Shown here piece after piece: positions 11,211 through 15,976 of a stretch of DNA of 64,000 nt. The stretch's first letter is position 1; the number at the start of each line of letters is the position of its first letter. The position numbers were made by a program, and so were the translations under genes. Source of the DNA: Krischvirus LF73P4; the sequence record OZ035795.1, one strand, 5' to 3'. The notes under the pieces were generated by a model. It ran no database searches, had not been told where the DNA came from, and was given only the letters and a program-made list of their open reading frames with translations.

Positions 11211-11418
11211 TTTCTATCACCTCCACCCAATCAGGTGTTTCCTGAAAGACTCCTTCACCTTCATGATGGTCGCAACCTTTATTGCTACAGTACATCCACC
11301 AATCCCACATTCCCCACGGTAAACGCTGCATATCGTCGTTACAGCAAGTGAAGATGATAGGCCAACCACATCTACCACATCGGCAGTTTTCCTTCATGTG
11401 TGCGCTATTAGGCTTCAT
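11203..11418 (-). CDS. hypothetical Cys-rich protein (start adjusted)
   Basis: CRCGRCGW ... CC ... C..H.H cysteine cluster; ORF track 11203..11457. Confidence 0.45.
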   Translation of the reverse strand: MKPNSAHMKENCRCGRCGWPIIFTCCNDDMQRLPWGMWDWWMYCSNKGCDHHEGEGVFQETPDWVEVIENA

Positions 11419-11863
11419 ATTCAACCACCACAATATTGATATCCGGCGTAAAATCATTAATAATTTCTTCTACGCATTCCCACTCAAGACCGCCAATCCC
11501 ACAACCAATTTTAGGAATATAGAACGGCTTAACAGTACCTTCAAATGCGGAGTTAAGTTGTTCGAATCCACGGATGATAGCGGAATATTCAGCATTTGGT
11601 CCTGGACGGAATTGCGTATAAAGATTAATACCCATCCAGTTATAACCATTAACGGTATGATGCCAAACATTAAACTCGCCTAGCTTACTCGCCGTTCCTC
11701 TCGGTGTCTTTTTGTCAGTAGCCAATGCTTGCGGGAACTCTTTCGCGATCTTCGCAGCAATACCAGCACCCATAGTATGAAAACAATTACAACCATGAAT
11801 TAAATGACCGTTTCCTTGTTTAAACAGGGCGATGAGATCGCCCTTTACAGTATCAATAATCAT
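11408..11863 (-). CDS. macro-domain protein (ADP-ribose binding/processing)
   Basis: HGCNCFHTMGAGIAAKI and IGCGIGGL motifs typical of macro domains; SD2 context. Confidence 0.75.
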   Translation of the reverse strand: MIIDTVKGDLIALFKQGNGHLIHGCNCFHTMGAGIAAKIAKEFPQALATDKKTPRGTASKLGEFNVWHHTVNGYNWMGINLYTQFRPGPNAEYSAIIRGFEQLNSAFEGTVKPFYIPKIGCGIGGLEWECVEEIINDFTPDINIVVVEYEA

Positions 11864-12245: not shown

Positions 12246-12836
12246 TCAATAGCGTTTAGTCTTAAGAATGCCTTTACTCTTTAGATGGTTAGCCTTTTTT
12301 AGTACATCATCAGCATAACCTAACCCGGCTTTATAGTTCCATCCAGCATTGTAAGAAGCTAGCGCGAGTCGGATATTACCGTTTCGAACATCCAGCCAGT
12401 ATGCTAACTCATCCATCGCGTAGAATGCAGAAACCTCGCGATTCATGATAAAGTTGATAGTCTGGCGATCACTCATTTTAACACCGCGCTTTGCATTTTT
12501 CGCTTTCACCGTTTTAAGGTAATTTTGAAATAATCCATAAGCATGATGATTTTTCTTTGGTGCTAAGTTTGCACCCGCGCTTGATTCTTGCCATGCGATA
12601 CCCGCCAGGATGTGACCTAAACCCTTTCCGTTATAGCGAATATTCGGATGGTCCTTTTTCAACTTACCGCTTTTCTCGAATTGCTCGCCGTATTGATAGG
12701 CGAAATGTAAATTATCTAGTTGGTGTGCTGTAAAGTTGTCTATCGGCGCTTTTTTGATCGGTGCGCTAGTCGATGCGTGTGTAGCACCAACGGCTAGTGA
12801 CAGACTCAATACTATCGCTTTTAGAACTTTTAACAT
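12246..12836 (-). CDS. secreted lytic transglycosylase (SLT-domain protein)
   Basis: signal peptide; AWQESSAG, YGLFQ and ASYNAG motifs of the SLT catalytic domain. Confidence 0.75.
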   Translation of the reverse strand: MLKVLKAIVLSLSLAVGATHASTSAPIKKAPIDNFTAHQLDNLHFAYQYGEQFEKSGKLKKDHPNIRYNGKGLGHILAGIAWQESSAGANLAPKKNHHAYGLFQNYLKTVKAKNAKRGVKMSDRQTINFIMNREVSAFYAMDELAYWLDVRNGNIRLALASYNAGWNYKAGLGYADDVLKKANHLKSKGILKTKRY

Positions 12837-12922: not shown

Positions 12923-13345
12923 TTATTGGTCTACCTTCAAAACAACCGCCGACATTTTACCCGCCAGTCGTTTTGGATTCTCTATAATCATTCGGCAGCA
13001 TAGACCGTGATATGGCTTACCCTCTTCGATTAGATCTACTGTCATCCCGATCCACATGTTACCGTCAGTAATTTCTAATCGATTCGGACGGTCTTCCATT
13101 TTCAGGAAGTCGAAGATCTCCGGCAAACGAGTTTCTATCTTATTGAATAGTTCCATTGTCTTATGTTCATCGATATGACGATCGGTTAGACGGTCGATCA
13201 TATGCGGACTAAAGCGAATGAAAATATACTCACCATAACCATCATTCAAGCACTTTTCTTTGATCTGTGCATTGGTTTTGCGCATTTCGGTTTCGAAGAA
13301 TCTACGCAGCTTACTACGGCGAACATGTACGTTAATTGTTTCCAT
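12923..13345 (-). CDS. hypothetical protein (start adjusted to ATG 13345, 140 aa)
   Basis: SD2-like context AGAAAGGATAATAAA-ATG; ORF track 12923..13417. Confidence 0.5.
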   Translation of the reverse strand: METINVHVRRSKLRRFFETEMRKTNAQIKEKCLNDGYGEYIFIRFSPHMIDRLTDRHIDEHKTMELFNKIETRLPEIFDFLKMEDRPNRLEITDGNMWIGMTVDLIEEGKPYHGLCCRMIIENPKRLAGKMSAVVLKVDQ

Positions 13346-13349
13346 TTTA

Positions 13350-13685
13350 TTATCCTTTCTTAAACAAATTGCGAAGCCAGTATACAAACGGGATTTCTTT
13401 AAACTTGAACTTGTCAATAGTTAATTCTTTAGTAGCAAGATGAATACCATAAGCATCATGTGTAACTATATGCCATTTTCTATAGTCCAAATGTGAACAA
13501 CCGTCTGGATCTAGGTTAATAAGAGTTTCTCGCTCACTAGAATTATTTTTCCACAATTTTGTAATAGGATCGCACATAATTCGACCTAGCGTACCATGAA
13601 TAATCTCACAACGGTAAAGTTTTCCAGCAGTGAGATAGGCGCACCCGTCATAGTCGGTATAAACAAACACTTCTTTAACACTCAT
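13350..13685 (-). CDS. hypothetical protein, CSHL-motif family paralog (start adjusted)
   Basis: SD1 and promoter 13717-13745; motif DPDGCSHLDYRKW shared with two upstream ORFs. Confidence 0.5.
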   Translation of the reverse strand: MSVKEVFVYTDYDGCAYLTAGKLYRCEIIHGTLGRIMCDPITKLWKNNSSERETLINLDPDGCSHLDYRKWHIVTHDAYGIHLATKELTIDKFKFKEIPFVYWLRNLFKKG

Positions 13686-13716
13686 TTTAATACTCCTTTG
13701 TTGTTTCGATGGGGGT

Positions 13717-13745
13717 ATATTACTACCCCCGATCATGGGTGTCAA
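13717..13745 (-). promoter_or_regulatory. sigma70-type early promoter (PeSL-like)
   Basis: minus strand TTGACA (13740-13745), 17-nt spacer, TAATAT (13717-13722); GGGGGTA/TACCCCC palindrome. Confidence 0.65.
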
Positions 13746-13991
13746 CTACTTTTTCAAGATTTTTTTGAGTGCATTCCAAAGACCTTTATTCCCAGGTTGT
13801 TTTGGTTCTTCGATCAGTGTCCATGTTCGACCGTCTAAGTGTGCACAATTTTTAAGACAAATAAAAATCTGGTGTCCCTTATCATCACGGATATAACCAC
13901 TATTCGCAAATCTTTCATGTGGTGTATATTCATACAGTGTATTAGGTGTAATATACTTGCGGTTACTATAAGGTGTCATCACATACATCAT
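13746..13991 (-). CDS. hypothetical protein, CSHL-motif family paralog
   Basis: motif NCAHLDGRTW; ATGA overlap with upstream gene. Confidence 0.5.
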   Translation of the reverse strand: MMYVMTPYSNRKYITPNTLYEYTPHERFANSGYIRDDKGHQIFICLKNCAHLDGRTWTLIEEPKQPGNKGLWNALKKILKK

Positions 13992-14182
13992 GGTACTAAC
14001 TCCCAACGATCACCGCGAAGATGAGAACATCTACCATCAAGAAGTATTGTAATACGATAACCTATATCATCTTTGATGTAACCGATTGTCGGTGGATTTT
14101 CGTCGTCTCGTGCCGGGGTAAAATCATACATCTTTCCGGGCGTAATATCTTGTCCTTTATTGCTATTGGTATAAACTTGCAT
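13988..14182 (-). CDS. hypothetical protein, CSHL-motif family paralog
   Basis: motif GRCSHLRGDRW; SD AGGAGATTAAGAAA-ATG. Confidence 0.5.
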   Translation of the reverse strand: MQVYTNSNKGQDITPGKMYDFTPARDDENPPTIGYIKDDIGYRITILLDGRCSHLRGDRWELVP

Positions 14183-14203
14183 TTTCTTAATCTCCTATAT
14201 TAA

Positions 14204-14902
14204 CTAACCACGGGTATAGTGTTCCAGAACAACTGTCAGATGAATATATTCTAATAGATCTTTCCAAAAGTCAACATCTGGTTCTTCCGGCATACCGTTT
14301 TTCTTTGCCTCTTCACGCGAGAGTTTAACACGCTCGTAGAGATCTTTCAATTCTTCCCGCACATTATCAAAGGTTCTTTCTCCTAACTTACACGCTAAAA
14401 TAGAAGAACGTCGCGCGAGCGGGAATTGTAGATCACCTGTCTGATAGATTTCAAGTAGCTGATAACCAACACGCAGAGCATGAGAAAGATCTTTCCAGTT
14501 ACTGAAATACTTTTCAGATTTGGCTACCTGCTTTTTGAGATAGCCAGACAAACCCCACATACCAACATGATAGAATTTATCTCGATGTGTTCGGATGTAT
14601 TCCCATTCTCTGGAGGATTCAATCAACATGTTACTAGGAGCGTGCACCATGTCAATAGCGCCGATATCGCCTTTACATGCCAGATTGATAAACCGTTTTA
14701 GACTGAACATATTAACATCAATATCGTCTTTGGTGTTCTTGATACCTTGACCGCTAGTGCTTTGGTCATAGTGTTCTTTCATAGATCCTAAGATAATTTC
14801 TTTCGCAGTCGGAACAAAGATACCACGATAATCTTTATCTGAATTTTCAGTATCAAGGCCGTACAAGTGAGATCCGAAGACCATTTTAACCATTGTATGC
14901 AT
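14204..14902 (-). CDS. predicted nucleotidyltransferase (Pol-beta superfamily fold)
   Basis: N-terminal GSHLYGLDTENSDKD matches GS-x3-G-x5-SD-x-D minimal nucleotidyltransferase signature. Confidence 0.6.
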   Translation of the reverse strand: MHTMVKMVFGSHLYGLDTENSDKDYRGIFVPTAKEIILGSMKEHYDQSTSGQGIKNTKDDIDVNMFSLKRFINLACKGDIGAIDMVHAPSNMLIESSREWEYIRTHRDKFYHVGMWGLSGYLKKQVAKSEKYFSNWKDLSHALRVGYQLLEIYQTGDLQFPLARRSSILACKLGERTFDNVREELKDLYERVKLSREEAKKNGMPEEPDVDFWKDLLEYIHLTVVLEHYTRG

Positions 14903-14920
14903 AATTAAACCCTCAGTTGA

Positions 14921-15514
14921 TTAAACGTATTCAGCAACAACATTATGTTTAAAATTACCGCTCCTTTTTGGATTTGGATTTTTCAATCGACTATGTATTA
15001 AATTTTTGTTGTATCCGGTTGCTTTAGACGCTTCGCCAATACTTTGATAAACAACACCATTAACACGAATCGGACGAGACTTATTAAACAGTTTATTCAA
15101 TCCGGCATCATATGCATGGTTTTGGTTTTCTTGCCTCGTTGCGATCTCAAGATTCCAAACACAATTACAAGATTTTACCCCACTTTTATGATTAATTTCA
15201 AGACCTTCACAATCACCTATAAAGTGTTCAGCAACTAGTCTATGAATATAGCTATATTTCTTACTTTCCCCATCATGCAAGCATACATTATAATAACCAT
15301 CACCAGCGCGTTTAGGTCGGAGTAGTTTACCTTTAACACGTTTTATAGTAGGGAACTCACCAAATTGATTTCTCTGGATAAACGGAATCTCGCGGTCTAA
15401 TGAACGGATTCGACCATAGTTAGACACTTGATAAAAACTTTCATATCCTTTAATTGGCTTCCATATCTCAGGGATTTCTACACCATCAATAACAACAAGT
15501 TTAAATTCTTCCAT
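14921..15514 (-). CDS. HNH homing endonuclease
   Basis: NUMOD4-like YQVSNYGRIRS, HNH core HRLVAEHF ... EINHK ... N..NLE; sits directly after grcA terminator without own promoter. Confidence 0.8.
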   Translation of the reverse strand: MEEFKLVVIDGVEIPEIWKPIKGYESFYQVSNYGRIRSLDREIPFIQRNQFGEFPTIKRVKGKLLRPKRAGDGYYNVCLHDGESKKYSYIHRLVAEHFIGDCEGLEINHKSGVKSCNCVWNLEIATRQENQNHAYDAGLNKLFNKSRPIRVNGVVYQSIGEASKATGYNKNLIHSRLKNPNPKRSGNFKHNVVAEYV

Positions 15515-15525
15515 ATTTCACCTCA

Positions 15526-15557
15526 TAAAAATAAAGCCAACCCTTTCGGATTGGCTT
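15526..15557 (-). terminator. rho-independent terminator (minus strand)
   Basis: AAGCCAACCC-TTTC-GGATTGGCTT hairpin followed by T-run on minus strand. Confidence 0.65.
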
Positions 15558-15562
15558 GTCGA

Positions 15563-15976
15563 TTACATAGATTCCGTAAAGGTACGGGTGATAATATCAA
15601 GTTGTTGTTCGCGTGTCAAGGCGTTGAAGCGGGTAGCATAACCACTGATTCGAATTGTAAGCTGCGGGTACTTCTCAGGATGTTCAACCGCATCAAGAAG
15701 AGTCTCCCGACGCAGTACATTCGCGTTGAGATGATGACCCGCGTTACTATTTACCCCGTTATCAATTGCTAAAGGACGGAAGCTAGTTGTGTGCAGTGCC
15801 AGCGAATCGACGTCTTCTGCGGTGATCACATGGTCTTCTGCGAAAGTTTTACTAACAATTACTTTAGCGCCGATCAGTGCTTTCGGTTCGGATACCAGAA
15901 TCATAGGCGCGAAGTGTCCACCAATAATAGTACCTTTATGCTCACCTTTCATGATTTGAATTGCTTTAAATTCCAT
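15563..15976 (-). CDS. grcA: autonomous glycyl radical cofactor (GrcA/YfiD-like)
   Basis: C-terminal [10 protein letters not shown] glycyl-radical motif and [27 protein letters not shown] segment match E. coli GrcA. Confidence 0.9.

Follow-up and report, generated by a model that had tools for sequence, protein, structure and literature searches.

The gene at positions 14204..14902, on the minus strand, of the stretch of Krischvirus LF73P4 DNA analysed here (sequence record OZ035795.1; 64,000 nucleotides, hereafter the window) is the Krischvirus (RB49/JSE-type) ortholog of phage T4 nrdC.11. Its product, a protein of 232 amino acids (aa), is practically certain to be a nucleotidyltransferase (NTase) of the RlaP family. 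We propose in addition, with more reserve, that this enzyme may extend the 3' ends of damaged RNA so that other phage enzymes could reseal them. The gene is already annotated and its family is named and recently characterised; the identification is correct but ordinary. All the window features described below lie, like nrdC.11, on the minus strand.

Identity, distribution and fold of the nrdC.11 product

The open reading frame (ORF) begins with an ATG, ends with a stop codon at 14204-14206 and encodes, both in the ORF listing and on re-translation, a protein beginning MHTMVKMVFGSHLYGLDTENSDKDYRG, just as an earlier reading of the sequence alone (the sequence-only reading) had described it. The protein matches the Pfam family RlaP (PF10127) with 53.5 bits against a cut-off of 23 (E = 3.6e-14), its residues 7-191 aligning in nearly colinear fashion with positions 24-198 of the 249 in the model. 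Pfam gives this family the title "RNA repair pathway DNA polymerase beta family". The match to PHROG 388 (phrog_388, nucleotidyltransferase) is stronger still (E = 4.1e-79). The RB49 protein is 99.6% identical to the window NrdC.11, and in RefSeq the JSE counterpart carries the gene name nrdC.11 and the product name nucleotidyltransferase. PF10127 is the sole Pfam family that the protein matches, the ANT and MNT families giving no match; NCBIfam holds no model for it, and the PADLOC scan returned no defence-system NTase match.

The family is widespread among phages. Indeed, tblastn matched NrdC.11 to 1,598 phage records, from T4-like phages of enterobacteria, Aeromonas and Acinetobacter and also from unrelated phages of Bacillus, Gordonia and Mycobacterium, and 3,538 representatives of 50%-identity clusters matched it at E <= 0.001. 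Together with the Pfam and PHROG scores, these numbers place the NTase assignment far beyond chance. The proteins of a metagenomic relative (P0002), of the Bacillus phage Deep Blue and of the Gordonia phage Octobien14 score 54-101 bits against the RlaP model and cover nearly the whole of it. A match of nrdC.11 orthologues to a nucleotidyltransferase domain (COG3541) had been noticed by 2006 (PMC1524935). The names given to these orthologues vary, from "putative nucleotidyltransferase" to, wrongly, "thioredoxin" in many GenBank and UniRef entries and, once, 'HNH homing endonuclease'. The wrong names were apparently taken from the neighbouring genes nrdC and mobD, since the proteins that bear them match PF10127 only.

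Purifying selection on nrdC.11 is strong: among the six pairs that four Krischvirus genomes form, five show a ratio of nonsynonymous to synonymous polymorphism (pN/pS) of 0.04-0.06 for this gene, and the sixth has no nonsynonymous difference at all.

An AlphaFold2 (AF2) model built from 35 homologues has a mean predicted local distance difference test score (pLDDT) of 91.8 and a predicted template modelling score (pTM) of 0.88, and it contains the NTase fold that the sequence-only reading had put forward for verification by structure prediction. The N-terminal Pol-beta-type NTase domain (about residues 1-112; 14567..14902), of mixed alpha/beta type and delimited from the AF2 model and its fold matches, consists of a first beta strand at residues 2-9, a helix at 11-14, strands at 23-30, 44-48 and 61-67, helices within 68-86 and a strand at 93-96. 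It is followed by a C-terminal helical domain (about residues 116-232; 14207..14557), in which residues 116-201 form a helical bundle and residues 210-229 a long terminal helix. The protein is therefore not the 'minimal' NTase of the sequence-only reading, being instead a two-domain RlaP enzyme. The further 150 or so residues, whose fold was called unknown there, are a helical bundle such as is found fused to NTase domains in RlaP and related families.

The Pol-beta-type signature recognised in the earlier reading is confirmed. The nucleotide- and metal-binding motif (14831..14875, codons checked and read on the homologue alignment) runs G10-S11, ten residues, D22-K-D24, a spacing that fits the hG[GS]x9-13Dh[DE]h pattern of the Pol-beta superfamily. 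A candidate third catalytic carboxylate (hDh) is provided by D60-I-D62 (14717..14725) at the start of strand 61-67, and the third metal ligand would be D60 or D62. In the C-terminal domain, one helix carries the conserved W136-K137-x3-H141-x2-R144 motif (14471-14497). In an alignment that takes in the 22-27% identical homologues of the Deep Blue, Octobien14 and Miley16 (Mycobacterium) phages, G10, S11, D22, D60, K137 and R144 are invariant, and conservation reaches 90% or more at D24, D62 and H141. In all 11 sequences of alignment A4, position 60 is D and position 62 is D or E. The catalytic acidic triad, whose absence on alignment would have counted against the sequence-only reading, is thus present, with D60 or D62 as its putative third member.

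Among solved structures, the best matches of the AF2 model are HalB, the kanamycin NTase and LinB, with the streptomycin NTase also among the best. Their template modelling scores (TM-scores) of 0.3-0.5 and identities of 10-14% are low, and the matches reflect a shared superfamily architecture. In the crystal structure of PfRlaP, a Pseudomonas enzyme, an NTase domain and a helical domain are followed by a C-terminal helix packing back on the NTase domain (PMC12776372); going by this description, the AF2 model has its elements in the same order. The window protein neither matches a CD-NTase model nor has a cGAS/OAS-like fold, and it does not belong with HalB of the Hailong system. MNT proteins are single-domain, of about 100-150 aa, and encoded beside a HEPN toxin gene, whereas this protein has 232 aa and a fused helical domain, and its gene adjoins no HEPN gene.

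A putative role in RNA repair

According to the accounts given in PMC12776372 and PMC7824862, RlaP enzymes were predicted to replace the nucleotides that damaged RNA has lost, ahead of its ligation (Burroughs and Aravind 2016). A preprint of December 2025 (PMC12776372) describes the activity of two of them, PfRlaP and PaRlaP of Pseudomonas, which labelled E. coli RNA and left DNA and protein unlabelled. These enzymes add one or two nucleoside monophosphates (NMP), or deoxynucleoside monophosphates (dNMP), to RNA 3'-OH ends, prefer a nicked-tRNA mimic and Mn2+, and partially rescue the aminoacylation of a tRNA lacking one anticodon-loop nucleotide (PMC12776372). They are not tRNA-specific, as RNAs of rRNA size, full-length RNAs and single-stranded RNA oligonucleotides are labelled too (PMC12776372). 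The function of the window protein, which the sequence-only reading had left open, is less open in the light of these two enzymes. The window protein shares with the bacterial RlaP enzymes the Pfam family, the conserved aspartates and a length of about 230-250 aa, and its predicted domains follow the same order. In the family network of the same study, T4 NrdC.11 falls in cluster 5 and PfRlaP and PaRlaP in cluster 1a (PMC12776372).

We infer that the phage enzyme may have the activity of its bacterial relatives and may act in RNA repair. The nucleoside triphosphate (NTP) and two divalent metal ions, probably Mn2+, would be held by G10-S11 and by the carboxylates D22, D24 and D60/D62, and the RNA 3' end would sit in the cleft between the NTase and helical domains, which K137, H141 and R144 would line. 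NrdC.11 would then put one or two untemplated nucleotides onto the 3'-OH. Such additions might replace the nucleotides that host ribonucleases of the nucleotide-excising kind, for example the RloC-type anticodon nucleases, cut from the tRNAs of the host or from other RNAs, and the polynucleotide kinase/phosphatase (pseT) and RNA ligase 1 (rnlA) of the phage would subsequently reseal a functional RNA. Taken whole, from the RlaP mechanism to the repair role ahead of Pnk and Rnl1, we rate this proposal as moderately probable.

Several elements of context are consistent with it. JSE, which is 98% identical to the window in the nrdC.11 region, encodes both pseT and rnlA. In jumbo phages, the distribution of RlaP mirrors that of RNA ligases (PMC7824862). 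In Octobien14 (L006 1-7200) we found, in order, an RNA ligase, a ribose-phosphate pyrophosphokinase, a nicotinamide phosphoribosyltransferase, a hypothetical gene, RlaP and six tRNA genes, so that RlaP stands four genes from the ligase and beside the tRNA cluster. In other phages the neighbours are of another kind: the homologues of Deep Blue, Miley16 and Miami lie near genes for a ribonucleotide reductase, a NrdH glutaredoxin and a thymidylate synthase, respectively.

Other observations weigh against the repair proposal. The study that describes the bacterial enzymes labels T4 NrdC.11 "of unknown function", and the RNA 3'-end activity that it reports is that of PfRlaP and PaRlaP only (PMC12776372). 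In the JSE genome, nrdC.11 lies about 78 kb from pseT and rnlA; in the window, no RNA ligase was found and none adjoins nrdC.11, whereas the bacterial RlaP genes stand within RtcB/RtcA or other RNA-ligase operons. The context that defines the family as 'RNA-ligase-associated' is therefore absent in Krischvirus, even if that neighbourhood is described for 'some' RlaP members and is not universal (PMC12776372). Sequence searches of the PDB, with the protein and with two profiles, gave matches at chance level only (haemoglobins, designed cages), and the PfRlaP structure was not among them. The Krischvirus protein also lacks an internal insert of T4-type NrdC.11, with its YGxKGS(R) segment (see below), and its substrate range might differ for this reason. 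Finally, T4 remains viable under laboratory conditions when its nrdC.11 is deleted (PMC9825161). This dispensability fits a conditional counter-defence role, without indicating which one.

Could the same chemistry serve another purpose? NrdC.11 might add nucleotides to RNA 3' ends as tags that steer mRNA turnover, for example on fragments cut by RegB whose ends the phage polynucleotide kinase had healed. The broad RNA range of the bacterial enzymes would suit such a role, and nrdC.11 lies in the same minus-strand early run as regB, four genes downstream, as vs and as the Tk.4 macro-domain gene. However, the neighbours of nrdC.11 in T4 are mobD and nrdC.10, and regB is absent from the 10-kb T4 record that we examined, so that the proximity of regB and nrdC.11 is specific to the Krischvirus lineage. 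Moreover, a terminator-like hairpin and separate promoter-like sites split the nrdC.11/regB region. We consider this purpose unlikely, though it is not far-fetched.

The acceptor could also be something other than RNA. HEPN toxins are AMPylated by MNT antitoxins, and antibiotics are adenylylated by enzymes of the ANT/Lnu type; NrdC.11 may likewise nucleotidylylate a protein or a small molecule, and its target might be a host defence toxin. In this direction point the kanamycin, lincosamide and streptomycin NTases among the best structural matches, and the resemblance of the C-terminal domain to HEPN/KNTase-C bundles. Like the window protein, the ANT(4') kanamycin NTase and LinB combine a Pol-beta NTase domain with a helical substrate-binding domain (Foldseek E = 2e-5, probability 1.00). 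Nevertheless, these enzymes act on small-molecule acceptors, belong to other Pfam families and show identities of 8-13% and TM-scores of 0.28-0.42, in line with the weakness of the structural matches as a whole (TM-scores 0.3-0.5; identities 10-14%). The sequence places the protein in RlaP, with no other Pfam family and no PADLOC NTase match, and the RlaP enzymes assayed left E. coli proteins unlabelled. We give this alternative little credence.

Less credence still is due to the idea that NrdC.11 makes free or protein-primed oligonucleotides in the manner of HalB, as signals or decoys against host immunity. HalB (Hailong, PDB 9dbh), for all its place among the best structural matches, has no sequence relation to the window protein that profile searches can detect, and the identity in the structural alignment is 13%. 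Its product is long poly-dA primed by tyrosine, and its partner is the HalA channel, whereas the RlaP enzymes stop after one or two additions and need an RNA 3'-OH, and a HalA-like partner gene is absent near nrdC.11. The addition of nucleotides to broken RNA ahead of Pnk and Rnl1 is the reading that we retain.

The short Krischvirus form

The T4-type NrdC.11 proteins have 300-345 aa. In T4 NrdC.11 itself (336 aa), the N-terminal 130 and the C-terminal 95 or so residues align with the window protein at about 44-45% identity and contain the same invariant residues; what the window protein does not have is an internal insert of about 100 aa between the NTase and helical domains. This insert includes the YGxKGS(R) segment, which is near-invariant in the long forms and absent from the Krischvirus protein. 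The window copy is not isolated in this respect. Indeed, the metagenomic relative P0002 (234 aa, 56% identical) has the same short form, and further short forms (231-258 aa), whose boundaries differ a little, appear sporadically among the 150 closest representatives. Furthermore, the short form and the Bacillus and Gordonia phage proteins are colinear with the 249-position Pfam model, whereas the T4-type proteins match it contiguously over its first half only. The colinearity and the other short forms indicate that the window copy is of canonical RlaP size, and that the T4 insert elaborates on it in a lineage-specific way. We regard the short Krischvirus protein as a minor variant, and not as a new kind of enzyme.

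The missing residues, with the segment that the T4-type proteins hardly vary, could suggest a decaying and inactive remnant of the 336-aa enzyme, but this is scarcely credible: it is contradicted by pN/pS values of 0.00-0.06 across the four genomes and by the retention of every motif residue, the 56%-identical relative has the same short form, the length is that of the Pfam model and of other short phage members, and the AF2 model is compact and confident.

The position of the gene is shared in part with T4, where nrdC.11 also belongs to the early region and is directly preceded by an HNH homing endonuclease gene (mobD). The flanks differ otherwise, T4 nrdC.11 lying between mobD and nrdC.10 and Krischvirus nrdC.11 between vs.6 and regB.

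Genes and signals around nrdC.11

A free-standing homing endonuclease of the HNH type (NUMOD4 + HNH_3 by Pfam; 14921..15514) ends 18 nt upstream of nrdC.11, as the sequence-only reading had noticed. The downstream boundary of this endonuclease cassette coincides with the GAGGG ribosome-binding site of nrdC.11 (14910..14914), where the stretch TCAACTGAGGGTTTAATTATG is common to the window and to KFS-EC, a phage without the endonuclease. In KFS-EC, the terminator hairpin of vs.6 is followed by about 50 nt and then by the same TCAACTGAGGGTTTAATT-ATG as precedes nrdC.11 in the window. JSE has at this spot a different HNH gene, weakly NUMOD4/HNH_3-like. In the divergent contig L004, the HNH protein is 88% identical to that of the window, against 75% for Vs.6, 56% for NrdC.11 and 46-61% for the paralogs described below. 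The loci compared at the 5' flank of nrdC.11 are, besides that of the window, 7618-8148 in L001, 3951-4547 in L004 and 2308-3087 in L002. A cassette absent from one phage, replaced in another and better conserved than its flanks in a third gives no sign of a functional link between the endonuclease and nrdC.11, although the two are adjacent; the window HNH gene is a mobile cassette and not a partner of nrdC.11. In T4, the HNH gene mobD overlaps the nrdC.11 start (PMC2988022). With the variable occupancy of the site, this suggests that homing endonucleases land repeatedly in the 5' flank of nrdC.11, which is their expected behaviour beside a conserved gene.

Downstream of nrdC.11, the sequence-only reading had described three tandem paralogs with a CSHL motif (13350-14182). 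The trio is indeed related, with BLASTP E values of 7e-13, 0.001 and 0.002 between its members and cross-matches to PHROG 6261 and 15978. The motif is more exactly C-[SA]-[HY]-L followed by a Trp, in which C52 and W60 alone are near-invariant. Paralog 1 (64 aa; 13988..14182) is a small beta-barrel protein. The ATG of paralog 2 (81 aa; 13746..13991) overlaps the stop codon of paralog 1 as ATGA, and paralog 3 has 111 aa (13350..13685). Given the annotated orthologues and the ATG starts, paralogs 2 and 3 most likely begin at these ATG codons, and not as longer TTG-initiated ORFs. Matches of paralog 3 to FosA (about 20 bits against cut-offs of 180-305) and of paralog 1 to Tetrabrachion are spurious. 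A protein of unknown function that triggers a defence protein is known in Gp54, which does so for CapRel(SJ46) (PMC11578894).

The paralog family comprises 20 protein clusters overall and was found in 58 phage records only, all of them Krischvirus, against the 1,598 with NrdC.11, and T4 nrdC.11 has different neighbours. Co-conservation of NrdC.11 with the paralogs, which the sequence-only reading had proposed to analyse, is consequently rejected; the paralogs are genus-restricted and are not a conserved partner of NrdC.11, and their adjacency gives no sign of a functional link.

Megablast of 13300-15600 matched 58 phage records (90-99% identity), and each is that of an RB49/JSE-like Krischvirus coliphage (Straboviridae). 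The G+C content of the window is about 39-41% over most of its length, with genes on the minus strand to about 30 kb and on the plus strand beyond. A strong terminator-like hairpin (15534..15557), kept in KFS-EC and JSE, follows vs.6 upstream of the cassette insertion point, and a near-consensus sigma-70-like promoter (TTGACA-17-TATTAT with TG; 15591-15619) lies inside the end of vs.6, just upstream of the hairpin. A second promoter-like site (TTGACA-17-TAATAT; 13717-13745), also sigma-70-like, precedes paralog 3, its -10 element being placed in the loop of a GGGGGT/ACCCCC stem. The early neighbours, namely the Tk.4 macro domain gene (11408-11863), the Vs.1 gene with an SLT-like transglycosylase domain (12246-12836), the gene of the RegB endoribonuclease (12923-13345) and that of the glycyl-radical (GrcA-like) protein Vs.6 (15563-15976), are T4-type accessory genes of the usual sort. 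In scans over its full 64 kb, the window yielded neither a tRNA gene nor an Rfam match above gathering score.

Farther along, the gene annotated as an 'RNA ligase' in phage MIZ4 corresponds to an ORF at 22693-23163 of the window that encodes Acb1, a 2H phosphodiesterase directed against the cyclic-oligonucleotide-based anti-phage signalling system (CBASS) (Pfam PF23474, E = 1.5e-51). This ORF is the counterpart of T4 57B.

In conclusion, the observation made in the sequence-only reading is confirmed and its main interpretation is supported: the 14204-14902 gene encodes a nucleotidyltransferase. The family has about 1,600 copies in phages, this gene being one of them, and the value of the identification is mainly one of bookkeeping, the activity of RlaP and the proposed restoring of nucleotides removed by 'smart' ribotoxins before ligation having been published in late 2025. 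The compact Krischvirus NrdC.11, of canonical size and free of the T4 insert, could be a convenient protein for an activity test. If the phage enzymes do restore nucleotides during infection, this would complete the story of tRNA repair by T4 Pnk and Rnl1 and would explain how phages could answer the RloC-type nucleases.
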